Shown here: piece by piece, positions 11,393-42,893 of the stretch
Layout: each line of letters starts with the position of its first letter
How positions within the stretch are numbered: the stretch's first letter is position 1
Notes under the pieces: generated by a model
Seen by the model: the letters and a program-made list of their open reading frames with translations, nothing else
Databases searched by the model: none
What the model was told of the DNA's origin: nothing
Program-made: the position numbers and the translations under genes
Assembly (NCBI GenBank): GCA_964651475.1
Contig: CAZYXV010000019.1
Coordinates: 11,837 to 75,836, forward strand
Direction: 5' to 3'
DNA length: 64,000 nucleotides
DNA from: an uncultured Anaerolineae bacterium
Lineage (GTDB): Bacteria > Chloroflexota > Anaerolineae > Fen-1058

Positions 11393-11554
11393 CCCAGGAA
11401 TAGCCCTGTGGCATTTTGGCAATTGGCACATTCTCATCAGAATAACAAGCTGGTTTTTTGCGAGATAAAACAAATACGCCGGCGCCCGGATTGGGAGCCT
11501 AAACCGTTTTGAGGAAACGAAACGGTTGGCAGGCCGCCCGTATCATCTCAAAAT

Positions 11555-11615
11555 GTAGGGGCGACTCTTGCGGTCGCCCATATGAGGGCAGGGGCAAGCC
11601 CTGCCACTACCCCGG
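11555..11615. repeat. REP-like palindromic element related to 6661-6777, in inverted orientation
   Basis: GTAGGGGCGACTCTTGCGGTCGCC and GGGCAGGGGCAAGCCCTGCC match the reverse complement of hairpins at 6690-6745. Confidence 0.45.
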
Positions 11616-27326: not shown

Positions 27327-27396
27327 AAGCCCTCCTGTTGATTGTGTTTTATTCTACCACGTATTGCGCGGCGCGTAATTCCATAGCACACAGCAC

Positions 27397-27461
27397 GTTT
27401 GACGTTTCACGCCTGACGTTTGACATTTCACGCTTTACGTTTTGGGCTTTACGTTCTATAA
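27397..27461 (+). promoter_or_regulatory. Promoter region of the PBP2-like gene: tandem ~21-bp direct repeats plus a -10 TATAAT 8 nt before the ATG (probably leaderless or SD-less)
   Basis: TTTGACGTTTCACGCCTGACG / TTTGACATTTCACGCTTTACG tandem repeats; TATAAT at 27456-27461; no Shine-Dalgarno before ATG 27470. Confidence 0.35.
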
Positions 27462-27469
27462 TCACCCCT

Positions 27470-29617: not shown

Positions 29618-29624
29618 GCACTGG

Positions 29625-29702
29625 TGACTTTCCGCTGCACTGACACGGACTTTGCACTGGCGACGGTTTTCCATTGCACTACTATGACTTTACGCTGCAC
29701 TG
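29625..29702. repeat. 18-bp direct repeats TGACTTT(C/A)CGCTGCACTG (29625-29642, 29685-29702) with a partial copy between, at the left boundary of the low-GC island
   Basis: Seen in sequence directly after the PBP2 stop; 17/18 identical. Confidence 0.4.
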
Positions 29703-30238
29703 GGTGGGGGTGGACGCGTAAAAGCGGTAACGCGACAACGGCGGGAACGCTATAAAAAATACAACGGCTCGCCCGCCACCCGCAGGCCAGCCGCTAAAAA
29801 CCAATATTCAGTTGTAGTATGCTCGCTGGCGTTTATGGGGAGAGCTTACTCTCCGCTGTGAGCGCCGCTCTATGGCCGCTCCTATACCCTATTATTTGCC
29901 AGACGATGTGTGAGGGTAATTTATTCATTATTGGTCAGTAGACACCTCCCAAGGCCCCTAACGACAAGACTAGACCAGTAAAATCTTGCTTTTCACCTCC
30001 CTTCTGCCTTATATCTGATATTAGCTTACCACATCCTGTGGCTGATGCGCTTGCACATTTCTCAGGGGTGGCTTAACTCAATCTTGTCCACATCTCACAG
30101 CAAACTCACAGGTTGAAAAACGGATAAACGGGTTGCACATTCTGCCAGTAGTTGTGATACAATTACATCTGGGTGATTTTCTCATTTATCTATCGCTATC
30201 CCTGTGGCTCGCTCACAAATATGAAACGAAAATAGACC

Positions 30239-31756
30239 GTGACACGAGAGCGCAAAACTCGATTGAATCCTAAAGATGTCCCGCCATTAGGGCTGTCTGC
30301 GTTCGAAAGCCTGCGTGCTGAAGACGAACCCTGGCTAGCCGAACGTGCTTACATTTTGCCGCCAGAGTTCGAACTTATGGCCGGGGCGCGCTCGATCATA
30401 GTCTATGGGCAGCCTGGTTCCGGGAAAACAGCGTTGCGCCGTGCGCTGGAATATCGCGCCCTGTCCTTGATTCCAGCTCGGCTAATCGTGCATTGGCGAC
30501 CGACCCTGCCTGCCGATGCGCTCACCACCGGGACCCTGGCTGCCCGGACGCAACTTGCACAAGCTATGGATGCGTGTGCAATTGCATTACTCAAACATCT
30601 GGCTGATTCCCCTGCGGCTTACGGCCAGGCGCCTGACTGGGCGCAGCAAACATTGACGTGGTTTATTCACCGTTATAGCAATGATTTGCCAGGACAAATT
30701 ACTTTTTTATCGGATAGAGCCAGAGGATCAAGTCAAGCCCTCGTTCGCCAGTTGGCGACACGCCCTAATCGCGAGATTTTGGCAGCGGACGCTCCGCTGG
30801 ATGCTGTTGTGGCACGTTTGACAGAGGCGCTGGGGACAATCGGGCTTGAAGGGATATGGGTGATGGCCGATAGCGTCGAAGGTTTGACCGAAATCGAGCC
30901 GGAGCGCTTAGCGTCCGCGCTAACCGCTTTTCTGTCCTGTCTGGCTTATTTCGAGCAATCGCCGCTTTTTTACAAGCTAACCTTGCCCATCGCGCTTCAA
31001 TCGCGCCTGAACACTTCGAGCAGCATCGTTCGCGGGCGCGTCTTTCTTCATCAGCTTGCATGGACAGCCGATCACCTGAAGCAAATTGTGGAACGACGAT
31101 TGGCTTTGGTAACAGGCAAAGATGATTTCAAACTTGGCGATATTTATTCTCCTTCCCCCTCCAAGCGCCAATCCGCACAAATAACAAAACGCCCCAAACG
31201 GCCCAAGATTAACCCGGTTCAGGCCTGGTTAGCCGGCTGCGGCGGCGCTGTGCCGCGTGGTTGGTTAAACTATGCCAGCCCACTTGCATCAGCCTGCCTT
31301 CAACTCAGGGCGCAACAACAAATTCGTTCCCTCACCTGCCAGGAATGGTTAGAGGCGCGCGGTCGCGTGCCATTGATGCTTTCGCTTGATCAACAAACAG
31401 GCCTGGTGCATATTGGCTGGCGTACAATTGACCGGCTTTCCCCTCTCGAACAGTCTGTGTTGCAATACCTGATGGCTAACCATGGCCGCATCTGCACCAA
31501 AGAAGAGCTGTACGAAAATGCGTACCTGGCCAGTGAGCAGGCCGGCCTGAAAGCGAGTCAGCTCTCAGAAACACAGCCCAAACTGCCGGAACGACCAAGC
31601 CTCAAGAGCAAAGGCGGTTATAATAGCGTAATTGATACAGTGCTATGGCGATTGCGCGAGGCCATCGAGCCGGATATGGACAATCCCGTTTTCCTGCTAA
31701 CCAGCAAGGGGCAAGGCGTTGTGTTGCATCCGCAGCCCTTTGTAAAGGACGTGTGA
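30239..31756 (+). CDS. P-loop NTPase fused to a C-terminal OmpR/PhoB-type winged-helix DNA-binding domain (putative ATP-dependent transcriptional regulator)
   Basis: Walker A GQPGSGKTA, Walker B IWVMADSVEG; C-term ...SVLQYLMANHGRICTKEELYENAY...VIDTVLWRLREAIEPDMDNPVFLLTSKGQGVVL matches the Trans_reg_C pattern; GTG start. Confidence 0.55.
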   Translation: MTRERKTRLNPKDVPPLGLSAFESLRAEDEPWLAERAYILPPEFELMAGARSIIVYGQPGSGKTALRRALEYRALSLIPARLIVHWRPTLPADALTTGTLAARTQLAQAMDACAIALLKHLADSPAAYGQAPDWAQQTLTWFIHRYSNDLPGQITFLSDRARGSSQALVRQLATRPNREILAADAPLDAVVARLTEALGTIGLEGIWVMADSVEGLTEIEPERLASALTAFLSCLAYFEQSPLFYKLTLPIALQSRLNTSSSIVRGRVFLHQLAWTADHLKQIVERRLALVTGKDDFKLGDIYSPSPSKRQSAQITKRPKRPKINPVQAWLAGCGGAVPRGWLNYASPLASACLQLRAQQQIRSLTCQEWLEARGRVPLMLSLDQQTGLVHIGWRTIDRLSPLEQSVLQYLMANHGRICTKEELYENAYLASEQAGLKASQLSETQPKLPERPSLKSKGGYNSVIDTVLWRLREAIEPDMDNPVFLLTSKGQGVVLHPQPFVKDV

Positions 31757-31918
31757 GGTTGCTGAGAGATTGCAGCAAGATTACAACAAGATTACAGTTG
31801 TAAATCAATGGGGAAAACGAGTGTATTATACAAGTACACCTCCTTTTATCGGGGTTAAACGTCATGACGATCAAACAAGCACATCTAGACTGTTGACCAT
31901 GGGGAAAGAGTGTATTGA

Positions 31919-33136
31919 ATGTTGGCTGGCAAGGAGCAGTATGAACAGGAACTGGAACCCCTTTTTTATACGTGGCTGAAAACAGTTGGGCTTGACTTTA
32001 ACCCCTTTGCCATTCTGGATGCCGGCCAGGATCCCGATATTCCTGCTTATCTCGTTGGTCACACCGACTTTGAAAAACTGTGGGGTGATTGGCCGGCGTT
32101 TATATTTGCGCCGGCTGGCGGCGGCAAGACGGCTTTTCGCGTCCGGCTGGCGCGCGCTTGCCGGGTGGGTGAAGATGGCCGGCGGGTGTTCCCCATTGTT
32201 TATCATCGCTTGCCAGCGCCCGGCGAAATTGCCGAGGAGCATGGGCAGGCCATTCACCTAAAAAACATTGCCCGGCAAGCCGCCCAGGAACTCTTGTTTT
32301 GGCTGGCGTATCACCCCCTAAAATTGACCGAATTAGATAATGCCGCACTTGCCGCCATACGCCTCGTTTTCGACGCACATCTACCTTCACAACTCGATGA
32401 TTACCTGGATCGCCTGCGCTACTTTGGCGACCTGTCTCCCCTGGCGCACGAATTTGACCGCACGACCAGCTATCTCATCAACCCTCCCGGCCCTCAAGAT
32501 GTGCGACTATTTTGCGAACGCATGGCCCAGAGCCTGCCGAAAACTGCGTCCGGATTATTCCACGGTCAACAATTTGAACATCTAATCAACCTTCTCCTGA
32601 ATCAATTACATTTCGACGCGATTTATCTTTTGATTGACGGAGTAGATGCCTACCCGGAAACCGCTTCTGATTCCAAAGCCGCCTTGCCCATCCTCGATTG
32701 GCTGCTACGTCAAACACCGCAGTGGGCCGGCCAACACATCTTTGCCAAGTTTTTCTTGCCCGCCGAACTTGAAAATCCACTTCAACAACAAATGCCCACC
32801 CTATTGACAACGCCTTCAAAAGTTGCTATTATAGAATGGTCAGTTGCAACGTTAGTAGAGGTTATCCAAAGGCGGTTGAGCGTCGCCAGCCAGGGAATGT
32901 ATGATAGCCTGGATGCTCTCAGCAGCCCAGGTTTGCGCGGCGCAGAAAAGAAACTGGCGCGCACCGTCTGGCCGCGCGTCCCGCGCCAGATGTTAATCTT
33001 GACCGAACGATTGCTGGTCGAACACGTCCAACGCGCCGGCCCGCACGGCAAGCTTGAACCTCAAGATTTGGAACTGGCTTGCAACTGGTACGCCGGACAA
33101 AAAAAAGCCACCTTGCCGCTCGCAAGCTCTCCCTAG
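31919..33136 (+). CDS. P-loop NTPase, paralog of the upstream gene but without a DNA-binding domain
   Basis: Walker A APAGGGKTA, Walker B IYLLIDGVDA; N-terminal ...GLDFNPFAILDAGQD; collinear similarity to 30239..31756 through the NTPase core. Confidence 0.45.
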   Translation: MLAGKEQYEQELEPLFYTWLKTVGLDFNPFAILDAGQDPDIPAYLVGHTDFEKLWGDWPAFIFAPAGGGKTAFRVRLARACRVGEDGRRVFPIVYHRLPAPGEIAEEHGQAIHLKNIARQAAQELLFWLAYHPLKLTELDNAALAAIRLVFDAHLPSQLDDYLDRLRYFGDLSPLAHEFDRTTSYLINPPGPQDVRLFCERMAQSLPKTASGLFHGQQFEHLINLLLNQLHFDAIYLLIDGVDAYPETASDSKAALPILDWLLRQTPQWAGQHIFAKFFLPAELENPLQQQMPTLLTTPSKVAIIEWSVATLVEVIQRRLSVASQGMYDSLDALSSPGLRGAEKKLARTVWPRVPRQMLILTERLLVEHVQRAGPHGKLEPQDLELACNWYAGQKKATLPLASSP

Positions 33137-33297
33137 GCATATTGCGCCGCGGGTGAGTGCGGCGCAGTGGCCTCCATAACGATGCAGACGCCGGAGGTAA
33201 CAAGGTGATCAATGACGGGACATGACGATGTTTTATCGGTTATGTCCCGCTGCGTTTATCACGCTCTGCCAGTCTCTATGGGGAGAGGAATAAGAAC

Positions 33298-34725
33298 ATG
33301 ACCATTCAATCTGATTGGCTCTTTTACACCCGTGACAAGTTTGTAAACCGCACCAACGAAATAACATTAGTGACTGAAAAAGCGCAGAGGCTAACGGCCG
33401 GCCTCCCTGTAGACAAGCGCCTGGTGGTTTTCCGTGGCGCATGCCGATCGGGCAAGAGTTGGCTATTGCGCGAGATTGAGCGCCAGCTAAAAGAGCATTT
33501 GCCAACTATTCCAGTGATTTATCTGGACATGGTGCAGGTGAGTATTGAGGCGTTCCAGGTTGCTTCAAGAAACCCATCAAGATATATAGACCAGGCAAGC
33601 TTGCACCAAATAGTCGCGACCAGTTTTGATACAAGTGAACTATTCGATCTTTGCCATAGGTTGGGCGTAGAACATGAAGATCTGCACGAAAATGATAAAG
33701 TTTGGGGGTTGATCAATTACCTTGATCGCCGTGACCGCCTTACCGAGTTAGTAAGGGTGTGCTATCAATTGAGGCCCAATATCCTTGGATGGAATGCGTT
33801 TGAAGAGATATCAAAGGCCTCTGACGTCATGCAAGTCATCATTTGGCAGGTGGGAGAGCTTGTTGGCTTTCAGACTTACAAGGGCGCGAAATGGGGCGCG
33901 CTCATTGACGCTTTTCTCGGCAGTATACGCAAGGCAGGGGGTTTAATCCTTTTGCTTGATCATCTGGATGAGTTGTCACGTAATGCACAGGAGACCTTGG
34001 AAAATCGCTTCCTATCACCACTCGCTGTGCTGCCGGGAACCTTAATTATCTCTGGCAAACGCCTTACAGAACGCCCCTGGATAATGCCAGAGCTGCACCT
34101 CAAATCCAGAGAATATGATCTGCACAGCTTTGATTTGCCCACCACACAGGAGCAACTCCAAAAACAGATTCCTGGGCGTGAGCTAGCCGCCGACGAGGTC
34201 CAGCCATTGAGCGCCGGCTATCCTGGGTTAAATTATATTTTGGGCATGAATTGGGGCAACCGAGCCAGAGCGATAGAGCAATGTGCTCAGATCTTGATCG
34301 GAAACGAGGTTGAAGATTTGCGCCCCTACCTGGAAGCTCTGTGCGTGTTGCGCTCGTTCCACGAATCAGCTATGCCGGCCATGTTCACTGCGCGTCTGAA
34401 TGGGCCATTAACTGAATATAGTGTCCCCATTTGTCGAGATATTCGGGAAAGATTGACTCAAGCAAGGTTAGCCAGGTGGGACAAAGCAAAAGGCAATTTT
34501 AACGTGGATCCGGCGGTCAAAGCGGCGCTTGAAAACACTTTGCGCGAGAACAATTTTGCCTTGTGGATCGTATTACATTGCGCCGCTCATTGCTTGTACA
34601 ACAATTGGGCGACTCGCTACTCTCATAACTCAGAGTGGCAGATTGAAGCAGCTTATCACGCTGATTGTTTGCGAGCAGCAGGTTACAATCCCAATCAGTG
34701 CGACTGTCAGGAGGAAAAATCATGA
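33298..34725 (+). CDS. STAND/AAA_16-like P-loop NTPase
   Basis: RBS GGAGAGGAATAAGAAC-ATG; FVNRTNEI...VVFRGACRSGKSWLLREI (the F-x-x-R...GxxGxGKS pattern of STAND N-termini), Walker B LILLLDHLDEL. Confidence 0.5.
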   Translation: MTIQSDWLFYTRDKFVNRTNEITLVTEKAQRLTAGLPVDKRLVVFRGACRSGKSWLLREIERQLKEHLPTIPVIYLDMVQVSIEAFQVASRNPSRYIDQASLHQIVATSFDTSELFDLCHRLGVEHEDLHENDKVWGLINYLDRRDRLTELVRVCYQLRPNILGWNAFEEISKASDVMQVIIWQVGELVGFQTYKGAKWGALIDAFLGSIRKAGGLILLLDHLDELSRNAQETLENRFLSPLAVLPGTLIISGKRLTERPWIMPELHLKSREYDLHSFDLPTTQEQLQKQIPGRELAADEVQPLSAGYPGLNYILGMNWGNRARAIEQCAQILIGNEVEDLRPYLEALCVLRSFHESAMPAMFTARLNGPLTEYSVPICRDIRERLTQARLARWDKAKGNFNVDPAVKAALENTLRENNFALWIVLHCAAHCLYNNWATRYSHNSEWQIEAAYHADCLRAAGYNPNQCDCQEEKS

Positions 34726-37700
34726 GCCCACAGCTTGCTATAGAATACCTCGGCGCGCGCGCCACGCCAGAACTGGTCAACCGGAAACAAATTCTAAATA
34801 CAATCCAGATGACACTGGATAGTGCCGAGTGCCGGGTCGTCTACATCACTGGCAAAGGAGGCATGGGCAAGACACGCCTGCTGCGTGACATCCTGCAACG
34901 ATGCGCGCCTGGAGGCGAATGGTTCCGCCCGGGACTTCTTTCAATGTGGGATGTGCTCGACCTTTATCATACCCACACCCACGTTCAAGACGGATTCGCT
35001 CAAAGCATCTTGGATGCCTTGAGCGAAAGAGCGGCGCAAACCCACGACGCGCAGTCGCTCAAAAAATGTAGGGTTGCATTTGGCAAGTATCAAGAGGCCT
35101 ACAATCATTTTGAGAAAAGTAAATATCACCTGGCCGGTATGCTCAAAGAATTGTCAGAATTGCGTGACCAGGTGGCGCAAGAATTTGTCAACGCCCTCAA
35201 TGCCCTGGCGCAGTCTTATCACCTTGTCCTGGCAATTGACACAGCCGAAAAACTTTTCTACGAAACAGACGAGATCCAACAAGCCATCGAGTTAGGTGAA
35301 GAAGGCATTGCTGTCCTCTCCTGGCTATTGAAGAAGGTGCTGCCAGTTTTACGTAATGCGACGATACTTGTGGCTGGCCGCCCTGACCCCGAGAGCGGGC
35401 ACAAGCGACTGCGGAAGGATCTAAAAGCCGCCTTGCGCGACTGCTTGATTGAGCGCAACCTGGATAGATTTGAACTAGAGGATACCCAGGACTATTTCCG
35501 AGCCGCGGCCAGGGCTGTCGAACAAGAAGGCCAAGCTGAAGAGGCAAAACGCATTGAGGGTATTCCGCCTGAAACACAAACCGTCATCTGGCGTTATACA
35601 GGCGGGCGGCCGATTCGGCTCGCGCTGATGATTGACTATCTGCTCGAATCTCAGGATCTGCTCCCGCAAGTCAAAGACCCACCCGAAATCGCCTACAAAC
35701 GAACGGATGGTGAATTGGCCACCATTCAACAGGATATTGAACAAGACCTGGTGCGCTTTTGGGAAGAAACACGGCGAGCGACCAATCTGGCTATTATCAC
35801 GTTGGCGTGGGCGCGCAAGGGAATGGACGCTGAATTGCTGGCGCGCGCAGCCGATCTCAAACGAGACGAAATGTGGGATATTGAAAAAGCGCAGCAACTC
35901 TTGGATGCAATCAGGGGGCTCTCTTTTGTCAAAACCCGTTCCTTTGACGGGCGCTTTTTTCTGCACGACGAAATGTACGATTTGCTCGACCGTTACGTTT
36001 TGGCGCGCGTCCCAGAAATCGAACGTGAACGGGTGCACGCAGCCATTCTTAAATATTATGAAGAGCGAGTAGGCCGGGCCAGAAAAAGGGTGTTTGATTT
36101 AGGGCAGCCCCATCTTGAAAAAATGCCAGAGTGGGAGAGAGTGCCCTTGGGCGTGCCCAAACCACCCGACGATCCCAGGGCGTTGGCTGCTGCCATGACC
36201 GAACTGTACAATCTAATGGCCGAAGAGGTCCATTATCGCCTGCGCCACAACTCGCAATATGGCTATCAGGTTTACTATCATTATGCCCAAGAGGCTCACT
36301 GGGCTAGCGAAGACACTCTGGACCTGCTGCTACGTAGTGAGATACTGGATTTTCTAACTATCCTTGGAGCCAAAGAACGTATTGAGGGGTTGCGCTACAG
36401 CGAACCACTCATTGATACTGGATTACGTTGGGTGACTCGCAACACTCGGCGCAGAGCATATGCAACAGCAGTGAGCATCGCCGAACGGTTGCGGACAAAA
36501 TGCGAGAGCATTTTGGACGATGTGGGAGCATTGGCATGGGCGCGGCTGGATTCACAGCAAGGCGAAGCCATGACTTATCAGGGTATTGAACTGGAACGCG
36601 CCAAGGAGCTTTTGACATCTGCCGTGAGCAATCTGCAGACATTGGGAGCTTTATCAGGTTTTGAAGGATGGCAGCGCGATGTGTTGCTGGCAGAGGCTTT
36701 TAACAATTTGGGGTATTTGTACCGCACCCGGGGGCAGTTTCAAGATGCGATTGATACCTATGAAAAAGCCATCCCGCTCTGGCGCAAACTGGGTGAACGG
36801 GAGCCAGCCACCGAAAAGAAAGGTGTCTCGGACGCTCAGCACGCCAACACGCTCAACAACCTAGCCTGGGCCTGCGCCGAAGTGGGCGAATTCAGCAAAG
36901 CTGAGCGATATTGTCTCGATGCATTGCACAAGCGCCAACAACTTGGGCCGCTGGCCCCAGTTGCCTTTAGCTTGAACACACTGGGACTCATTTTGATGCG
37001 CGACGACAAGCCGCACCGGGCCAAAGTACATTGTGAGCGCGCACTGGGTATCTTTCGCGACCTGGGGCAACCGCGCGGCGTTGGGTTGGCGTGTATTGCG
37101 TTGGCCGAAGTGTATCGCCGCATGAGCGATGTGCCTGATCTGTACGCTCCTGAAGAAAGCGCCGACTTGTTGAAACAGGCCGCCCGCCACGCCCAGGAGG
37201 CCGTTGAGATTTTTGATAAATCGGTGCCCGAACGCCCCAGAAAAATTGAGGCGCTGCTTGAACTGGGCTGCGTGTATCGCCAATGGGCTTGGTTGCGGCC
37301 TAGCTACACATCAGTGACCGATAATGCTCCCCACGTCCTGGCCCAGAACAGCGAAGAGGCGCTAAGACAAGCCATCCAGGTAGCTGGAGAGGATTTGTTG
37401 CATCGCGGTGTGGATGCCCATGTTAACCTGGCTTGGCTATATTACTATGTAAGAGACAATGAAAAAGCGCGCGCTGAAGCGGAGACCGTCATCCAACGCA
37501 TTGACCAACGTTATCATATCACATCGAATGGCTGGCCAGATCAATCGCTCCCCCAGGCATTTTTCTGGGTGCAACTTGGCAAGGCGTGCTTGCTGCTTGG
37601 GCAAATCGCTTTCCGAGAATTTCAGCGCAGCCAGGGGCCGGCGCATTTGGAAAAAGCCGCCAGATATTATACTCTTGCATTAGCATATAACGAATTATTT

Positions 37701-37901
37701 GCTCCTGATTTTCGAGACGTTCGCCGAGGGCAGGATCGCATTTACGATCGCTTGAAGGGGCTAAATACCCAAGAATTTCAGGCTGTCTATCAAGGTATCC
37801 GGCAGGCTATTTATGAATATTCTCTACCCACGCCAACCCGTATGCAGCAATTTCTCAAAGACTTTGGATTACCCGAAATGCCCGGCGAAGAGGTCGGATG
37901 A
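34722..37901 (+). CDS. NB-ARC-type STAND NTPase with C-terminal TPR repeat array (signal-transduction ATPase; no recognisable effector domain)
   Basis: ATGA start/stop overlap with the upstream gene; VVYITGKGGMGKTRLLRDIL Walker A, HLVLAIDTAEKL Walker B; multiple TPR-like repeats (NNLGYLYRTRGQFQDAIDTYEKAI, LNNLAWACAEVGEFSKAERYCLDAL, ...). Confidence 0.6.
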   Translation: MSPQLAIEYLGARATPELVNRKQILNTIQMTLDSAECRVVYITGKGGMGKTRLLRDILQRCAPGGEWFRPGLLSMWDVLDLYHTHTHVQDGFAQSILDALSERAAQTHDAQSLKKCRVAFGKYQEAYNHFEKSKYHLAGMLKELSELRDQVAQEFVNALNALAQSYHLVLAIDTAEKLFYETDEIQQAIELGEEGIAVLSWLLKKVLPVLRNATILVAGRPDPESGHKRLRKDLKAALRDCLIERNLDRFELEDTQDYFRAAARAVEQEGQAEEAKRIEGIPPETQTVIWRYTGGRPIRLALMIDYLLESQDLLPQVKDPPEIAYKRTDGELATIQQDIEQDLVRFWEETRRATNLAIITLAWARKGMDAELLARAADLKRDEMWDIEKAQQLLDAIRGLSFVKTRSFDGRFFLHDEMYDLLDRYVLARVPEIERERVHAAILKYYEERVGRARKRVFDLGQPHLEKMPEWERVPLGVPKPPDDPRALAAAMTELYNLMAEEVHYRLRHNSQYGYQVYYHYAQEAHWASEDTLDLLLRSEILDFLTILGAKERIEGLRYSEPLIDTGLRWVTRNTRRRAYATAVSIAERLRTKCESILDDVGALAWARLDSQQGEAMTYQGIELERAKELLTSAVSNLQTLGALSGFEGWQRDVLLAEAFNNLGYLYRTRGQFQDAIDTYEKAIPLWRKLGEREPATEKKGVSDAQHANTLNNLAWACAEVGEFSKAERYCLDALHKRQQLGPLAPVAFSLNTLGLILMRDDKPHRAKVHCERALGIFRDLGQPRGVGLACIALAEVYRRMSDVPDLYAPEESADLLKQAARHAQEAVEIFDKSVPERPRKIEALLELGCVYRQWAWLRPSYTSVTDNAPHVLAQNSEEALRQAIQVAGEDLLHRGVDAHVNLAWLYYYVRDNEKARAEAETVIQRIDQRYHITSNGWPDQSLPQAFFWVQLGKACLLLGQIAFREFQRSQGPAHLEKAARYYTLALAYNELFAPDFRDVRRGQDRIYDRLKGLNTQEFQAVYQGIRQAIYEYSLPTPTRMQQFLKDFGLPEMPGEEVG

Positions 37902-37902
37902 A

Positions 37903-38376
37903 ATGGTCTTTTCTCTTGCCCCCGGACATCGCGTTGACCTTGTTGCCGCTATTAACACTGTGTGCAGCGAGAGCCCGTATATGGCAACCACACGCTTTGA
38001 GCCTACGCCGGCCTGGATGCATGCGCTAGATACACCTGATTGTCAATGTCATTGTATCCTGACGATTCAAGACACCGGTCGTATTATTGGCTGGTGTCGA
38101 ATGTTTCCGGCCAATCGCAATGAGGCGCTGTCGCAGGTGGAACTGGGCGTCGGCTTGCTTGCGCCGTACCGCTTGTGTGGGTTGGGGACATTGCTTGTCA
38201 GACAAGCGTTAGGCTGGGCCAGTCAAACCGGTTACGAGACGGCCATACTGCAAGTCCATCCAGATAATGCTGTAGCGCGTCATGTATTTGAACGTTGTGG
38301 GTTTGAATACGATGGCATGGTAGGTGGGCTGATGACGATGATTCGTCACCTGCGCCATGAGGAGCAATATTTGTGA
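37903..38376 (+). CDS. GNAT-family N-acetyltransferase
   Basis: Acetyl-CoA-binding motif region LCGLGTLLVRQALGWA; ATG 2 nt after the NB-ARC gene stop; stop overlaps the GTG of the next gene. Confidence 0.55.
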   Translation: MVFSLAPGHRVDLVAAINTVCSESPYMATTRFEPTPAWMHALDTPDCQCHCILTIQDTGRIIGWCRMFPANRNEALSQVELGVGLLAPYRLCGLGTLLVRQALGWASQTGYETAILQVHPDNAVARHVFERCGFEYDGMVGGLMTMIRHLRHEEQYL

Positions 38377-39845
38377 ACAGCTTGACAGAACAAGTTCCAC
38401 GAGTACTATGGGGTTTAGCTGGCGAGTGGGTAGAGCAAGATTGTGCATGCGCTGAAAACATACCGCACCTGTGGCGAATGCCGCCCGGCATCTCCAGCGA
38501 AACGGATTGCGCCTGCGCCGAACCGCTTTTGTCGCCCGCCCCCCCCACTTCATTAATGGCAACTGCCTGGCGCATTGCACCGGAGATCTATCGCGCCCCA
38601 TTGCCAGACATGCACGAACTAGTCTTTGCTTCTACCGGTCAGGCTGGCCTGATCATTCTTAACCAACCCGCCCGCGCTATCCTGAATGCTTACCGCCAAC
38701 CTCACACTCTAACCAACGACACAGCCCGCCAATTGGCACCACTTGGGTTACTCGTTACAACCTATCACCCTCAGTCCCCAGTCCCCAATCCCCAATCCAC
38801 CCTCACCGCCTGGCTACATATTACCAACGCCTGTAACCTAAACTGTGATTACTGCTACGTAAAAAAATCAAGCACGGCAATGACCCAAGAGGTAGGCTGC
38901 GCTGCCATTGACGCTGTCATCCGTTCAGCGCAGGTCAATGGCTACCAGGCTATCAAGCTCAAGTACGCCGGCGGCGAACCCACGCTGCATCCAGCGTTGG
39001 TCAATCGCCTGCACAACTATGCCGTTGATCGAGCCAACCACGCCAAGCTGAAATTGCGCGAAACGCTGCTGTCCAACGGCGTAGCAGTGACCGACGAATT
39101 GCTCGCCTGGCTGCGCGACGAGAACATGCGCGTAATGATCTCAATAGATGGGCTGGGCCAGGCGCACGACAAACAGCGCCATTTTGCCGATGGGCGCGGC
39201 ACAGCGTCGTTGGTATGCAATACTATTGAGCGCGCGCTGCGGTTGGGGCTAAAACCCTATCTATCCATCACCATCAGCGCAGATAACGCGCACGGGCTAT
39301 CCTCAACAGTTGCTTTTGCATTGGAACGCGGTGTGCCTTTTAATCTCAATTTTGTCCGGGCGGCTGGAGGCATTACAAACTCGCGTAAAATCATTGCCGG
39401 CGTGCGCGCGGCGTTTGAGGTAATAGAGAACAACCTGCCGCCTTATCCGCTGACCGGCATCCTCGACCGCGCCAATTTTGCCGCGCCGCACCCCTATACC
39501 TGTGGCGCCGGGCGCGATTACCTGGTGATTGACCCGGCCGGCAAAGTGGCGCGCTGCCAAATGGAACTTGAGCAGGCTGTGACTGATGTCTGGGCTGATA
39601 ATCCACTGCTTGCTGTGCGCGCTGCGCCAACTGGCTTTCAGGCAGTAACCGTAGATGAAAAAGAAAACTGCCGCGCTTGCCTGTGGCGCTATGCTTGCGG
39701 CGGGGGTTGCCCGCTTTTGACGCACCAGGCCACCGGTCACAATCAAGCCCCATCACCCTATTGCGAGGTGTACCAGGCGCTCTATCCTGATCTCTTGCGC
39801 CTGGAAGGATTGCGGCTGCTCAAGTGGGGAAAGCAGGCAGCATAA
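38373..39845 (+). CDS. Radical SAM / SPASM-domain enzyme (peptide-modifying maturase-like) with ~150-aa N-terminal extension containing two DCACAE motifs
   Basis: CNLNCDYCY (CxxxCxxC radical-SAM cluster motif); C-terminal CRACLWRYACGGGCP (SPASM auxiliary cluster Cys); N-term ...EQDCACAENIP...ETDCACAEPLL. Confidence 0.8.
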   Translation: MNSLTEQVPRVLWGLAGEWVEQDCACAENIPHLWRMPPGISSETDCACAEPLLSPAPPTSLMATAWRIAPEIYRAPLPDMHELVFASTGQAGLIILNQPARAILNAYRQPHTLTNDTARQLAPLGLLVTTYHPQSPVPNPQSTLTAWLHITNACNLNCDYCYVKKSSTAMTQEVGCAAIDAVIRSAQVNGYQAIKLKYAGGEPTLHPALVNRLHNYAVDRANHAKLKLRETLLSNGVAVTDELLAWLRDENMRVMISIDGLGQAHDKQRHFADGRGTASLVCNTIERALRLGLKPYLSITISADNAHGLSSTVAFALERGVPFNLNFVRAAGGITNSRKIIAGVRAAFEVIENNLPPYPLTGILDRANFAAPHPYTCGAGRDYLVIDPAGKVARCQMELEQAVTDVWADNPLLAVRAAPTGFQAVTVDEKENCRACLWRYACGGGCPLLTHQATGHNQAPSPYCEVYQALYPDLLRLEGLRLLKWGKQAA

Positions 39846-39867
39846 CAGCATCAACTCCGGCTCTAAA

Positions 39868-39904
39868 CGAGGGAGAAGGTTACAAGCCTTCTCCCTCGTT
39901 TTTT
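39868..39904 (+). terminator. Rho-independent terminator after the radical SAM gene
   Basis: ACGAGGGAGAAGG-ttacaag-CCTTCTCCCTCGT followed by TTTTTT. Confidence 0.7.
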
Positions 39905-40094
39905 GCGTGAGATTGTTGTGAGATGGTAGTAAGAAAAGAGCCAGAAAGTAGCAACCCGCTCGCAAACACTTTTTCAGATTATTGTACGACTCTTGCAAGA
40001 GCTGGCACGCTATTTAGCAGTATGATGTAGGCAGGATAAACAATCAACATTCTTGTGATAAAAGAAAGCAACTGGCACAGAAAGGAAGGTTAAT

Positions 40095-40214
40095 ATGGGA
40101 GAAATAATTCAAGCAATTCCTGTCATCATCATAGCGTTACCGTTTCTGCTTGTGCTTACACGAATGCTCACCGCATCCCATGACGATGGTGACGGCTGGG
40201 GGCAGTGGTCTTAG
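40095..40214 (+). CDS. Short (39 aa) hydrophobic peptide ORF with acidic Gly/Trp-rich tail (small membrane protein or possible precursor peptide)
   Basis: RBS GGAAGG 5 nt before ATG; MGEIIQAIPVIIIALPFLLVLTRMLTASHDDGDGWGQWS; below the ORF-track size cutoff. Confidence 0.3.
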   Translation: MGEIIQAIPVIIIALPFLLVLTRMLTASHDDGDGWGQWS

Positions 40215-40258
40215 CCGAGGTGTAAGCACCCGGCTCCAGGCTCGAGGGGAGACGAAAA

Positions 40259-40777
40259 ATGTCCAACAACTCTTTGCCCTGCTGCGTTGTCTTGATAGAC
40301 GTCAAAAACATTTCGCCCAACATAATAGGTGGGCTGATGCGGCAGTTGAAGTCGAGATACACCATTACTCAAGCCATTGGCTTTGCCGATTTTGGCCAGC
40401 CAGAGATTTCTAACACCAAAGCAGCGCTACGGCGGCTGGGTATCACGCTCCGCCACGTCCCGAGTCTGCAATCTGGGCGCTTTCGTAAAAGCCTGGTGGA
40501 TCAGACGTTAATGATTGAAATGATGATGATCCACGCTCACTGTCGCAATCAAATTGATGCTTACGTGCTCGTTTCCGGCGATGGGCATTTTGTGCCGATG
40601 GTGCAGGCGCTGCGTAGAGATGGCAAGCGTGTGATTGTAGCCGCGCCGCGACAATCGTCCAGCCGTGCACTACGCAGGGTGGCCAGTCAGTTTTTTACAG
40701 TGCGGATGCACGCGCGCAAGTCATCGGCCTCAACTACACTGCCTGGAATCGCACCGAGAACAGAGAGGCCGCAATGA
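40259..40777 (+). CDS. NYN-domain (LabA/PIN-like nuclease fold) protein
   Basis: DAYVLVSGDGHFVPMV matches the conserved NYN hh-SGDGDF-xPL motif; RBS GAGGGGAG before the ATG. Confidence 0.6.
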   Translation: MSNNSLPCCVVLIDVKNISPNIIGGLMRQLKSRYTITQAIGFADFGQPEISNTKAALRRLGITLRHVPSLQSGRFRKSLVDQTLMIEMMMIHAHCRNQIDAYVLVSGDGHFVPMVQALRRDGKRVIVAAPRQSSSRALRRVASQFFTVRMHARKSSASTTLPGIAPRTERPQ

Positions 40778-40854
40778 TTGCTCTGGTCATCATTGGCACG
40801 GTCAATTTGATAGCACTATTTGTGTTGGCGTTGCACCAACCAGTTGCACGATAA
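40774..40854 (+). CDS. Short (26 aa) hydrophobic peptide ORF, ATGA-coupled to the NYN gene stop
   Basis: MIALVIIGTVNLIALFVLALHQPVAR; start overlaps the NYN stop (caATGAtt). Confidence 0.2.
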   Translation: MIALVIIGTVNLIALFVLALHQPVAR

Positions 40855-40868
40855 GAGGAGGTGTATAA

Positions 40869-40967
40869 ATGAAACGACAAATTACCATTCATGATCTATT
40901 GGTGATCTTGTTGCTGCCACCCTTGCTAATATTGACCGAAATAATCAAACTGATAGGCGGGCCTTGA
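40869..40967 (+). CDS. Short (32 aa) hydrophobic peptide ORF
   Basis: Strong RBS AAGAGGAGG 7 nt before ATG; MKRQITIHDLLVILLLPPLLILTEIIKLIGGP. Confidence 0.3.
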   Translation: MKRQITIHDLLVILLLPPLLILTEIIKLIGGP

Positions 40968-41089
40968 ATTTTTTCTCGGGCGAAGCAAGCTATTGGTTTT
41001 TGCAAAAACTACTTGCTTCGCCCGGAATGATAGATCTGCGATCTTGGATATTTGTTCCAACATTTGAATTTATCGAAAGGACGTATCTG

Positions 41090-41227
41090 ATGTTCACTTA
41101 TATTTTCTTGCTGATCACAGTACCTCTCATAGTTGCTTTGGGAACAGGCATAAACCACACAGTGGCAGATTACAGACGGCGGCGCATTTACGCCCAACGG
41201 CTCAGGCAAGTGCTGGCGCAAAATTAA
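41090..41227 (+). CDS. Short (45 aa) single-TM peptide with Arg-rich C-terminus
   Basis: RBS AAAGGA 7 nt before the ATG; MFTYIFLLITVPLIVALGTGINHTVADYRRRRIYAQRLRQVLAQN (internal start within the 40964..41227 track ORF). Confidence 0.25.
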   Translation: MFTYIFLLITVPLIVALGTGINHTVADYRRRRIYAQRLRQVLAQN

Positions 41228-41502
41228 ACAGCCAAATGAATCTCTGATGTGCAACCCGCTCGCTCGAAATCGTCGTGTAGCGCAACCTGTTGACCATCCA
41301 CGAAAAGCGCGAGTTCATTGATCCGCGCAGCGCCCCGCCGGATTTGGAAGAGGCGGAGAGACGCACGCGAAAAGAGATCGCGGACATTGAGGCGCGATTG
41401 GCAAAATTGGGGTAGAATATAGCTAGAAAATTGCCAGTGCAAAATACCGCCGCAACCAGTGCGCGGAAAGTCGCAAGCTACACTTTTTAAAGGAGGAAAA
41501 GC

Positions 41503-41715
41503 ATGGACGAGTTAATCAAGCTGGTTGTAAACAAGACCGGGCTGCCGGAAGCGACGGCCCAAAAGGCCGTAGAGGTTGTGATTGGCTATTTGAAGAAAAA
41601 GCTGCCCGCGCCCATTGGCGCGCAGATTGATGCGCTGCTGGCCAGCGGCCAGGCAGCCCAGGGCGTTGAAAGCGCGGCGCAGGCATTGGGTGGGCTGTTG
41701 GGCAAAAAGAAATAG
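41503..41715 (+). CDS. Small (70 aa) helical hypothetical protein
   Basis: Strong RBS AAAGGAGGAAAAGC-ATG; MDELIKLVVNKTGLPEATAQKAVEVV... resembles an HU-like N-terminal helix pair but lacks the beta arms. Confidence 0.4.
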   Translation: MDELIKLVVNKTGLPEATAQKAVEVVIGYLKKKLPAPIGAQIDALLASGQAAQGVESAAQALGGLLGKKK

Positions 41716-41744
41716 CCGCTCGCCGCGCACACTGCACATCGGGG

Positions 41745-42893
41745 CTAAAGACTCCCGGCATCTTGCGAGACGCCGGGAACGAGTCCTTGGGCCGCCCGGT
41801 ACATTGCCACAATGTTTTCCGGCGGCGTATCGGGCTGAAAATTGTGCGCCGGGGCCAGGATATAGCCCCCGCCCGGCGACAGTATTTCCAGGACGCGCCG
41901 CACGTTTGCCCTCACCTCTTCTGGCGCGCCGCGCGGCAGGGTACGTTGTTCGTCAATGCCGCCGTGGAAGCATAGCCGCGCGCCAAAGTCGCGCTTGAGC
42001 GCGGAGGGATCCATGCCGGCGGCGTGCGGTTGAATGGGGTTGAGCACATCCAGTCCGATCTCGATCAAATCCTCGATGAAGGGCCTGACGCCGCCGCAGG
42101 TGTGCATAAAAATCTTGGCGCTGGTGCGCGCCTTGATTTCGGCGAACAATTGGCGATGCAGCGGTTTGATCAGCTCGCGGTACAGCGCGGGCGAAAGCAT
42201 CGGCCCGGTCTGAATGCCCAGGTCGTCGGCAGTTTCGACCATTTGCACATACGGGCCAACGGCATTCAGCATCACCTCGTATTGGCCGCAAATCACTTCA
42301 AAGACCTTGTGCAATAACCTGTCGGCAAAGCGCTTGTTACGTTTGAGGTCGCCCAAAAAGGCGGCAAAGCCGCGCAGGTACAGGGCCGTCTCGAATACGC
42401 CGCCGGGCAGGTGCGCCACCAGTGCGTAATCGCTTTGCTCGTACAGTTGGCGGGCCTGTTCGGCCAGGCCAGCCACCCGCGCGGGGTCAAAGGGATCAGG
42501 CCAGGCAAAGCGGCCCAAATCGGCTTCGTGGGCCTCTGCTAAGGGGTGCGCCACCATCACCGCATAGTGTCCCACCTTCTTTTGACGCAGCCCCCACTCG
42601 TCGGCCCAACTGCCATCGTCAAAGTGCGGCGAAACAAAATCGGATGGAGGGCGCAAGCGCACGCGGCGAAAATCAATCTCGAGCGCCCGCAGCACGCGCT
42701 CGTCCAGGTCAAGCATAACAAAAATGGGGCTGATCGTTTCACCGCCATCGCCCTGAAGGCCCAGGTGCGCTTTGAGCGGCCAGTAAGCGCCTTCCATCAG
42801 GCTGGCTACGCTGCCGCCCATATCCTGCGGGGGCCTATCGGGCTGTTGGTGATCGAGCGCCGTGACAACACGTTGGCGTGGGGTTAATCTCAT
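41745..42893 (-). CDS. Uroporphyrinogen decarboxylase (URO-D) family protein (URO-D/MtaA-like)
   Basis: N-terminal RQRVVTALDHQQPDRPP (URO-D family signature region); ~380 aa, TIM-barrel-size. Confidence 0.65.
   Translation of the reverse strand: MRLTPRQRVVTALDHQQPDRPPQDMGGSVASLMEGAYWPLKAHLGLQGDGGETISPIFVMLDLDERVLRALEIDFRRVRLRPPSDFVSPHFDDGSWADEWGLRQKKVGHYAVMVAHPLAEAHEADLGRFAWPDPFDPARVAGLAEQARQLYEQSDYALVAHLPGGVFETALYLRGFAAFLGDLKRNKRFADRLLHKVFEVICGQYEVMLNAVGPYVQMVETADDLGIQTGPMLSPALYRELIKPLHRQLFAEIKARTSAKIFMHTCGGVRPFIEDLIEIGLDVLNPIQPHAAGMDPSALKRDFGARLCFHGGIDEQRTLPRGAPEEVRANVRRVLEILSPGGGYILAPAHNFQPDTPPENIVAMYRAAQGLVPGVSQDAGSL

Follow-up and report, generated by a model that had tools for sequence, protein, structure and literature searches.

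In the NTP-dependent conflict systems of multicellular bacteria, the same EAD adaptor is carried by an effector and by the core NTPase (Kaur et al. 2020, eLife, PMC7159879). Together with the Death-like/TRADD-N systems described in 2021 (PMC8195603), these EAD-coupled systems are among the described systems closest to the locus analyzed here. It lies in a 64-kb window (the whole analyzed stretch of 64,000 nt, from contig CAZYXV010000019.1 of assembly GCA_964651475.1, an uncultured Anaerolineae bacterium), where six co-oriented, tightly packed genes occupy 30239-39845 of the + strand. They encode four P-loop NTPases (g1 to g4), a GNAT acetyltransferase and a radical S-adenosylmethionine (radical-SAM)/SPASM enzyme. 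As judged from sequence and gene order, this cassette is a real, conserved and apparently undescribed variant of the NTPase conflict systems that resemble nucleotide-binding leucine-rich-repeat receptors (NLR-like). Its genes are as follows.

30239-31756, + strand: g1, P-loop ATPase that ends in an OmpR/PhoB-type winged helix (GQPGSGKT as Walker A and WVMAD as Walker B; winged helix at about nt 31379-31753)
31919-33136, + strand: g2, distant g1 paralogue without the DNA-binding domain (weak AAA_22 in Pfam only; NCBIfam DS41_1 and Sll1717 models shared with g1)
33298-34725, + strand: g3, P-loop NTPase with an EAD7 adaptor (EAD7 46.4 bits, cut-off 32; aa 102-160, nt 33601-33777, between Walker A and Walker B)
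34722-37901, + strand: g4, STAND NTPase with a tetratricopeptide-repeat (TPR) array, 1059 aa (AAA_16 35.3 bits, cut-off 32.6; TPR_12 68.6 bits, cut-off 30.1)
37903-38376, + strand: GNAT acetyltransferase (Acetyltransf_1 54.9 bits, cut-off 20.7)
38373-39845, + strand: radical-SAM/SPASM enzyme (Radical_SAM 56.8 bits, cut-off 29.5; CxxxCxxC and a 7-Cys SPASM pattern)

The cassette and its sister loci share with the EAD-coupled systems their STAND/AAA+ cores and EAD7, EAD9 and bDLD1 adaptors, the TIR, caspase, CHAT and trypsin plus Trypco1 effectors of the sister loci, the same EAD on effector and NTPase in Nostoc, and the occurrence in filamentous lineages with several diversified copies per genome. 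In contrast to those systems, it has no MoxR-vWA, GAP1 or other core defined there, and its constant partner, a radical-SAM/SPASM maturase whose N-terminal repeats are rich in Cys, is described in neither paper. The sole radical-SAM passage found in PMC7159879 concerns FtsH ternary systems with a separate peptide gene, and a full-text search of PMC8195603 for 'radical SAM' returned no occurrence. Avs/AVAST and bacterial NACHT STAND proteins resemble g4 in that a P-loop STAND module is followed by a TPR or other repeat sensor, with ligand-triggered oligomerization. Nevertheless, they are single polypeptides with a fused N-terminal effector, whereas g4 has none and is paired with a second NTPase and the radical-SAM enzyme. 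The two-NTPase layout is analogous to the sensor/helper NLR pairs of plants.

A first, sequence-only reading of this DNA did not recognize the combination as a described system, and this view held: none of the PADLOC or NCBIfam models was matched at threshold (all 73 NCBIfam matches to the cassette fell below their cut-offs), and a full-text literature search found no description of a STAND NTPase plus radical-SAM cassette.

Conservation of the cassette was assessed by a census in which one genome per GTDB species was scanned with iterative profiles of g1-g5 and the loci were tabulated (numbers prefixed L below). Orthologous radical-SAM loci were defined by E<1e-85 (n=51), and 48 of these were testable. 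A g4-like STAND-TPR gene was found immediately upstream of the radical-SAM gene, on the same strand, in 43/48, which upholds the earlier proposal that the genes form one unit; its order does recur in other genomes. Directly before g4, 31 of those loci have a g3-like NTPase. The exceptions are a convergent arrangement (L013), contigs ending at the radical-SAM gene (L012, L024, L041) and a NACHT-HEAT variant (L008). From these counts the conserved core is g3, g4 and the radical-SAM enzyme, not all four NTPases, as had been proposed.

The full order g1-g2-g3-g4-GNAT-radical-SAM recurs in L005, L006, L015 and L057; the contexts of L005 and L006 read winged-helix ATPase, paralogue, AAA_16/ATPase_2 NTPase, STAND-TPR, GNAT and radical-SAM enzyme. 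Several genomes contain more than one cassette or extra g4 copies (L008, L020, L029, L056, L062), and one of the two cassettes of L008 carries the NACHT-HEAT protein and a CHAP-ricin protein. As a negative control, loci with only distant radical-SAM relatives (n=24, L064-L088 minus L066 and L074) were inspected, and none carries these NTPases. L066 and L074 are contig-truncated orthologues of the cassette family and do carry them. The order and adjacency of the genes hold in at least three phyla. The hosts include Anaerolineae, Ardenticatenaceae, Caldilineaceae, Chloroflexus, Roseiflexus, Oscillochloris, Dictyobacter, several Nostoc, Pseudonocardiaceae, Solirubrobacteraceae and Ca. Vecturithrix/UASB14, and all named hosts belong to filamentous lineages (a tally of hosts).

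The gene junctions were read directly from the sequence: g3 and g4 overlap (ATGA), 1 nt separates g4 from the GNAT gene, and the GNAT and radical-SAM genes overlap (GTGA). Translational coupling of g3 to g4 and an overlapping radical-SAM start had both been predicted, and all of the open reading frames (ORFs) named in that prediction are present on the + strand with their coordinates correct.

Walker A (GxxGxGK[ST]) and Walker B (hhhhD) motifs are readable in all of g1-g4, and G52, K53 and D221 are invariant in the g3 family. For g3, described beforehand as an AAA_16/STAND-like NTPase, the P-loop NTPase assignment stands, with an EAD7 insertion that had not been named. For g4, described as an NB-ARC plus TPR STAND NTPase, the STAND and TPR parts are borne out by AAA_16 and TPR_12, whereas NB-ARC and NACHT are sub-threshold. 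The Pfam-detected part of the TPR array spans aa 656-810 (nt 36687-37151), and g4 lacks an effector domain. A housekeeping identity of the NTPases as DnaA/ORC-like factors, the alternative raised beforehand, was rejected, as ORC-CDC6-like and Hda matches score far below their cut-offs.

The class of the cassette is indicated by the modules that occupy equivalent positions in other genomes. Proteins at the g3 position carry, by Pfam, TIR/SEFIR (L016, L017, L020, L045), trypsin (L050), bDLD1 (L030), EAD9 (Nostoc) or EAD7, and longer g2-type proteins carry a caspase (L011) or EAD7 plus CHAT (L074). In five Nostoc loci the gene order is Trypco1 protein, trypsin-EAD9 protein, EAD9-NTPase, STAND-TPR and radical-SAM enzyme; since a trypsin-EAD9 protein lies beside an EAD9-NTPase, these loci follow the EAD-coupling rule of PMC7159879. 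The same EAD on the core and on a nearby effector was found in Nostoc (EAD9) and in L074 (EAD7-CHAT). Swapped killing or signaling effectors occur at the level of the family. Because TIR, SEFIR, trypsin, caspase, CHAT, Death-like and EAD modules on equivalent proteins point to a conflict system and not to biosynthetic regulators, the cassette likely belongs to the NLR-like conflict/cell-death class. The antiphage or conflict-island interpretation in the sequence-only reading is strengthened by these modules. The more specific proposal, an NLR-like conflict or programmed-cell-death cassette of filamentous bacteria with the radical-SAM maturase as its constant partner, is put forward with even confidence.

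Several observations weigh against this assignment. The window has no TIR, caspase or trypsin effector and a single EAD7 copy, that of g3, with no second EAD7 protein in the 64 kb; the window copy has only the GNAT and radical-SAM enzymes and possibly the NYN protein described below. The killing arm would therefore be missing, have its genes in another part of the genome, or be the radical-SAM/GNAT pair itself. A search of PADLOC-DB v2 yielded no known system, only weak generic matches (pVip radical-SAM core, TPR, NYN). STAND-TPR proteins also accompany radical-SAM clusters for peptides that are made on ribosomes and modified after translation (RiPPs), as represented by the NCBIfam HaaT model. 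Finally, a role in defense and any enzymatic activity of the cassette are inferred.

The additional genes of the window copy appear in few lineages. In g1, the Pfam model Trans_reg_C is matched at 32.3 bits (cut-off 26.2), confirming the proposed fusion of a P-loop NTPase to an OmpR-type winged helix; AAA_16 and ORC-CDC6-like matches are sub-threshold. The public annotation of g1 (459 aa) starts 46 residues late. The NCBIfam match begins at residue 22, which supports the long form with its GTG start. Pairwise identity of g1 and g2 is just 22% over 103 aa, making g2 a distant paralogue; their family profiles cross-match at 1e-25 to 1e-29. With the shared NCBIfam models, these cross-matches agree with the reading of g2 as a paralogue that lacks the DNA-binding domain, albeit a distant one. 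A PDB sequence search with g1 and g2 gave no informative match.

Both ATPases are related to DS-41, the 'AAA2' system of the DefensePredictor study, a single-gene P-loop ATPase with anti-phage activity validated in E. coli (PMC13092281). Nearly the whole length of the DS-41 profile is covered by g2 (E 1.3e-25) and, with a weaker match, by g1, and the DS-41 model NF053860 scores g2 at 90.3 bits and g1 at 48.1 bits against an equivalog cut-off of 370. By these profile scores, g1 and g2 are homologous to DS-41 but not members of it. They share its P-loop ATPase profile, and DS-41 itself is the validated anti-phage protein. In contrast to single-gene DS-41, the ATPases of the window are paired in a six-gene operon, and one of them has a winged helix. 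The pair occurs in a Chloroflexota subset of the cassettes, and the GNAT gene in only 7 related loci, the closest relatives. In one cassette of L008 the GNAT position is taken by the CHAP-ricin protein, a peptidoglycan hydrolase (8372-9748). The winged-helix ATPase pair and the GNAT are lineage-specific, accessory additions.

The radical-SAM enzyme is the partner common to the family, with hundreds of full-length homologues at about 45-57% identity. Its CxxxCxxC motif is C154/C158/C161 (nt 38832-38855), and a full 7-Cys SPASM pattern is present at the C-terminus. The GNAT and radical-SAM/SPASM calls made from sequence alone were both correct, as each exceeds its Pfam cut-off and the SPASM cysteines are complete. 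Among NCBIfam models the best matches were PapB (133 bits, cut-off 340) and SCIFF (108 bits, cut-off 425), with nif11-type maturases also among the best. The closest solved structures, by sequence and by fold, are CteB (5wgg/5why), TigE, anSME and ChlB. An AlphaFold (AF2) model (pLDDT 81, pTM 0.84) contains a beta-sheet/helix domain resembling a RiPP recognition element (RRE) at aa 66-130, and aa 14-60 are predicted to be disordered.

From these comparisons the enzyme resembles the thioether-forming peptide maturases CteB and PapB. It shares the RRE, radical-SAM and 7-Cys SPASM modules with CteB (SCIFF, PDB 5wgg/5why), PapB (ranthipeptides) and anSME, whose substrates are Cys-containing peptides, often with Asp/Glu partners and tandem repeats. 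In contrast to these enzymes, it has no separate precursor gene, its genomic partners are NTPases, and its scores are below the equivalog cut-offs. In the public annotation the protein starts at Met36 (455 aa), which removes the first of the repeats described below. Residues upstream of the annotated starts are conserved across homologues, supporting the longer forms of both the radical-SAM enzyme (490 aa, from the GTG at 38373) and g1.

To look for a separate precursor peptide, every ORF of 15-130 aa in the 1.5 kb downstream of some 50 radical-SAM orthologues was included in a clustering. No conserved small ORF was found in these loci; the only similarities were local and at the nucleotide level (Nostoc siblings, a shared terminator hairpin), and the candidate was rejected. 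The tails of g3 and g4 were likewise rejected as substrates, their C-termini being neither conserved nor Cys-rich. No protease, exporter or immunity gene is present in the window cassette, and none recurs as a conserved neighbor across related loci. The proteases of sister cassettes are the EAD-linked trypsin, caspase or CHAT. Of the earlier suggestion that radical-SAM plus GNAT indicates RiPP-like modification, the maturase type stands; the restricted distribution of the GNAT and the lack of a separate precursor, protease or exporter do not support the rest. In four loci a Band_7/SPFH protein was observed directly 3' of the radical-SAM gene (L017, 12795-13706; L018, 2719-3534; L039, 11772-12551; L044, 11711-12505).

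The N-terminus of the radical-SAM enzyme carries tandem repeats. Residues 9-50 (nt 38397-38522) consist of two ILW..AE-x-DCAC units, with DCAC encoded at nt 38439-38450 and 38505-38516 (cysteines C24, C26, C46 and C48). The family consensus of the unit is (I/V)LW-x6-A-E-x-D-C-A-C-(A/P/S), in which conservation reaches 98-100% at D, C, A and C and 89% at the E of position -3. Copy number varies among 120 homologues, with one unit in 29, two in 75 and three in 10, and one aligned protein has four. Motif variants occur in Nostoc and other lineages (QCDCDCDCAC in L016 and L030, DCDDCDCP, QCDCAF). The motif differs from CxxxD of PapA and CxPxR of sulfatases. Short radical-SAM forms without the RRE still keep the repeats.

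An exhaustive repeat-profile search over 1.84 billion representative proteins identified, besides truncated family members, free-standing proteins of 85-135 aa that consist of 2-4 DCACP repeats; P0259, P0263, P0270 and P0264 have 3-4 repeats in 100-135 aa. As in the fused form, a short hydrophobic stretch lies about 10 residues upstream of each repeat. The next gene encodes an RRE plus radical-SAM maturase in all of the loci found through the peptides (4/4). A metagenome search from those maturases returned two testable loci, both with a DCACP ORF directly upstream (2/2), so that overall the free-standing protein directly precedes the maturase gene in 6/6 testable loci. The DCACP ORFs have 1-4 tandem repeats, most end in a conserved '(I/V)RV.VV.P' tail, and each is followed by the radical-SAM gene:

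L092, 293-700: DCACP ORF
L093, 697-1047: DCACP ORF
L094, 576-974: DCACP ORF
L095, 84-386: DCACP ORF
L098, 706-963: DCACP ORF
L099, about 230-380: DCACP ORF

In L099 an MFS transporter gene lies downstream of the pair. No NCBIfam model matched the DCACP peptides or their maturases above threshold, and together they are a candidate unnamed RiPP family. Two further matches of the search stood apart. P0257, a stand-alone-looking repeat copy of 101 aa, lies beside truB on a 669-bp contig and was uninformative. P0255 (905 aa, secreted-looking) has at least 12 'HxHxFVEG(E/K)CxCGE.(D/N)PNYxPP' repeats; it is unrelated and matched the DCAC profile through its CxC core only.

DCAC(P) repeats are thus found in trans to a radical-SAM enzyme elsewhere and in cis here, a Rosetta-stone relationship which suggests that the enzyme has its substrate fused to it in the form of the repeats. 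A tethered substrate would also fit the absence of the RRE from several lineages that retain the repeats. We tentatively propose, a little short of even confidence, that the N-terminal DCAC repeats are a cis-substrate fused to the enzyme. Some results weigh against this proposal. The motif is degenerate in two orthologues (L027 and L052), and the AF2 model showed no confident docking of the N-terminal tail. Against the cassette radical-SAM profile, the split-system maturases score about 100 bits, like unrelated SPASM maturases; they were rejected as sister enzymes and are only generic relatives, so the shared DCAC motif could be convergent. Alternatively, the CxC repeats might serve as ligands of a metal or of an Fe-S cluster.

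To our knowledge, no well-known RiPP class other than the borosins (OphMA-type) has its core peptide inside the modifying enzyme. Their fused and split versions in nature parallel the fused repeats and the split DCACP/radical-SAM pairs. In contrast, the borosin enzyme is a methyltransferase with a C-terminal core and no link to NTPases, whereas the repeats of the cassette enzyme are N-terminal and their cis-modification is putative.

In the proposed working of the cassette, the core is a triad of an NTPase that carries an effector or recruits one through an EAD or Death-like module (here g3, with EAD7), an effector-less STAND-TPR protein (g4) and the radical-SAM/SPASM maturase. In the window this triad is extended by the DS-41-like pair g1 and g2, with the OmpR-type DNA-binding domain on g1, and by the GNAT. 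By analogy with their families, g4 would sense a ligand through its TPR array and switch by NTP-dependent oligomerization, g3 would couple this switching to effectors through EAD7, and g1 would provide a transcriptional output. From its sequence and the Rosetta-stone relationship, the radical-SAM enzyme is predicted to act in cis, with the ILW-x6-AE-x-DCAC repeats of its disordered N-terminus as the target and their cysteines as the most likely sites. The chemistry might be hydrogen abstraction at or next to the DCAC cysteines, leading to a thioether cross-link or a related product by analogy with CteB, PapB and anSME. More speculatively, the modification state of the tail, or a peptide released from it, could be read or deployed by the NTPase pair; the peptide could be cut from the tail by trypsin, caspase or CHAT proteases such as those of sister cassettes, and the GNAT could acetylate the tail or another component. 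Coupling of the radical-SAM tail to TPR sensing is doubtful. Less probable still is a scheme in which the enzyme would continuously cross-link or otherwise modify its own DCAC repeats and the TPR-STAND/adaptor-NTPase pair would read the result; this self-modification, being oxygen-, SAM- and Fe-S-dependent, would serve as a guarded 'integrity signal', or yield a released alarm peptide, for an NLR-like immune or cell-death switch.

Receptors of the STAND/NLR-like kind have a central role in the immunity of bacteria, plants and animals, as radical-SAM maturases have in peptide natural-product chemistry. Both are combined in this cassette, which occurs in at least about 50 species from four phyla of filamentous bacteria (Chloroflexota, Cyanobacteria, Actinomycetota and the Ca. 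Vecturithrix/UASB14 lineage) and has no entry in the defense, RiPP and literature resources searched. If the cis-substrate proposal is true, the enzyme would be the second class after the borosins with enzyme and core peptide in one protein, and would offer a compact system, a single protein whose modification can be read by mass spectrometry. If an immune or cell-death switch is involved, the cassette would provide a bacterial model of paired NLRs in which the output or the input is a post-translational cysteine modification. Signaling through a self-modified tail, if true, would be a first in two respects, as a case of a radical-SAM RiPP-type maturase that has its substrate built in and as a connection of RiPP chemistry with NLR-type signaling.

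One alternative is that the radical-SAM enzyme is a trans-acting effector or maturase of the STAND pair with another target, such as a host or invader protein, an NTPase or a small molecule. The DCAC repeats would then bind a metal or an Fe-S cluster, inhibit the enzyme as a pseudo-substrate, or offer the g4 TPRs a docking handle. This reading would account for the lack of an effector domain in g4, which is translationally linked to the radical-SAM gene in most loci, and for CxC and CxCxCxC runs such as those of L016 and L030, which look metal-binding. An RRE implies a peptide ligand, which may be another than the enzyme's own tail; the split-system maturases have no sister relationship to this enzyme; and a radical-SAM effector was noted by Kaur et al. 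in another NTPase system. Nevertheless, the variable copy number (1-4) and predicted disorder are unusual for a structural metal site, and retention of the repeats in RRE-less variants is expected if tethering replaces leader recognition. The consistent position of DCACP proteins directly upstream of maturases also argues for a substrate, and the cassette yielded no further conserved candidate for a substrate with cysteines. On this evidence a trans-acting enzyme is unlikely.

An ordinary RiPP cluster is rather unlikely. In such a cluster the radical-SAM enzyme (with the GNAT) would produce a peptide natural product, cut from its own N-terminus or encoded elsewhere, and the NTPases would be LAL/SARP/MalT-like, ATP-dependent regulators of transcription. 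Described precedents place a TPR protein or a winged-helix ATPase beside a radical-SAM maturase or a biosynthetic cluster, as here: the STAND-TPR protein HaaT (NF041717) and the SARP/AfsR regulators. In keeping with this, g1 has an OmpR-type winged helix, the radical-SAM enzyme is of a bona fide RRE plus SPASM maturase type, HaaT, the NCBIfam model for a cyclophane-pathway TPR protein, is weakly touched by g4, and the split DCACP-peptide/radical-SAM pairs resemble minimal RiPP clusters, one of them with an MFS exporter. However, g4 matches only the TPR part of HaaT, and the scores lie far below the cut-offs (HaaT 37.7 vs 1125 bits, FxsB 61 vs 370). The winged helix of g1 is C-terminal, there is no BTAD as in SARP/AfsR, and the partner NTPases carry death or effector modules. 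The winged-helix component is absent from most lineages, whereas the g3 plus g4 pair, which lacks it, is near-universal. The protease, exporter and immunity genes of a RiPP cluster are missing from the window cassette and do not recur across related loci, and TIR, caspase, CHAT, trypsin, Death-like and EAD modules are effectors and adaptors of conflict systems, not pathway regulators.

Chance juxtaposition in a variable acquired region, or of housekeeping ORC/DnaA-like ATPases, with no functional unit, would be compatible with the GC trough and the weak ORC-CDC6-like and Hda matches, but it is highly improbable, being contradicted by synteny that spans at least three phyla and includes overlaps of start and stop codons, by the low ORC/Hda scores, by ordinary chromosomal flanks and by the failure to find plasmid or phage copies.

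The base composition of the locus was compared with that of its relatives. GC per kb is 0.50-0.56 across 30-42 kb and 0.59-0.68 in most flanking kb. The AT-rich island noted beforehand is therefore real, although its flanks are nearer 60-65% than the ~65% given. Among the related loci, 35/42 likewise have a cassette poorer in GC than the flanking DNA (mean -3.9 points), so the trough here is no evidence of recent transfer, and the horizontal acquisition suggested from it is weakly founded. Low GC is a trait of the cassette family, compatible with frequent transfer or with a compositional bias. Plasmid and phage collections were searched for homologues of the radical-SAM enzyme, and none were found.

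The left edge is marked by repeats:

29620-29703, no strand: four tandem units of about 20 nt (GACTTT..GCACTG), just past the stop codon of the penicillin-binding protein 2 (PBP2) gene and about 540 nt upstream of g1

The 18-bp direct repeats reported at the left boundary were confirmed as part of these units (29625-29642 and 29685-29702, 17/18 identical). Both copies are at the left end; a third was found neither elsewhere in the window nor at the right boundary. The units are possibly an operator and not an att site. An OmpR-type winged-helix protein, of which g1 is one, would fit their spacing. Upstream regions of g1 orthologues showed nothing consistent in the way of comparable operator repeats. 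No tRNA gene was detected in the 64-kb window and no integrase-sized ORF inside the island, in line with the first reading, and no att-like repeat pair bounding the cassette was found. A site-specifically integrated island is not supported on these grounds. Rfam elements gave no match across 27-44 kb. In an empty-site comparison with relatives whose PBP2 is 72% and 60% identical, the cassette is absent at that position, but synteny is poor. An imperfect 15-nt inverted repeat (13/15; 29621-29635 and 41463-41477) lies at both edges of the GC trough and is no stronger than many chance pairs listed.

Downstream of the radical-SAM gene the following features were found:

39865-39907, + strand: intrinsic terminator (perfect 15-bp stem at 39865-39901, then a U run; -36 kcal/mol, z = -6.6)
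40095-40214, + strand: 39-aa hydrophobic ORF with a good Shine-Dalgarno sequence of its own, starting about 190 nt past the terminator
40259-40777, + strand: NYN-domain protein (Pfam NYN 82.7 bits, cut-off 24.2; 4.9e-23)

The strong terminator expected after the radical-SAM gene is thus present, and this predicted hairpin and U run close the six-gene operon. The hairpin is near-identical in L005 (about 11505-11585), where one frame of both reads EGEG.KPSPSFF and the proteins are merely 57% identical; it may be a shared repeat element. Further small ORFs trail the NYN gene, and together with it they make up a transcription unit of their own. A search of a 5.8-billion-protein collection gave no NYN relatives at E<=1e-10, a threshold too strict for a database of that size. 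A NYN protein 3' of the radical-SAM gene occurs elsewhere in L060 only, where it is dissimilar and 543 aa long, and nearly all related loci lack both the NYN gene and the mini-ORFs. Given this absence and the strong terminator in between, they are probably bystanders outside the system, and their inclusion in the STAND island by the sequence-only reading is not supported.

The flanking genes are ordinary chromosomal genes, encoding PBP2, a DUF6909 protein, a PrsW protease, an MtaA/URO-D-like protein, a class A PBP and a coiled-coil protein. Cell-wall genes lie near several cassettes. In the window, PBP2 (27338-29617, + strand) abuts the cassette and a class A PBP (42932-45928, - strand) lies about 3 kb downstream. 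PBP2 is found about 10 kb from the cassette in L006 (21407-), and a class A PBP adjoins the cassettes of L020 (3-968) and L062 (4448-7000). This recurrence could reflect a chromosomal hotspot or a functional link. Further upstream, a 1959-aa ORF without a Pfam match (17815-23694, + strand) lies in a stretch of high GC with an AT skew of -0.25 to -0.31, and the PrsW-family protease gene follows it.

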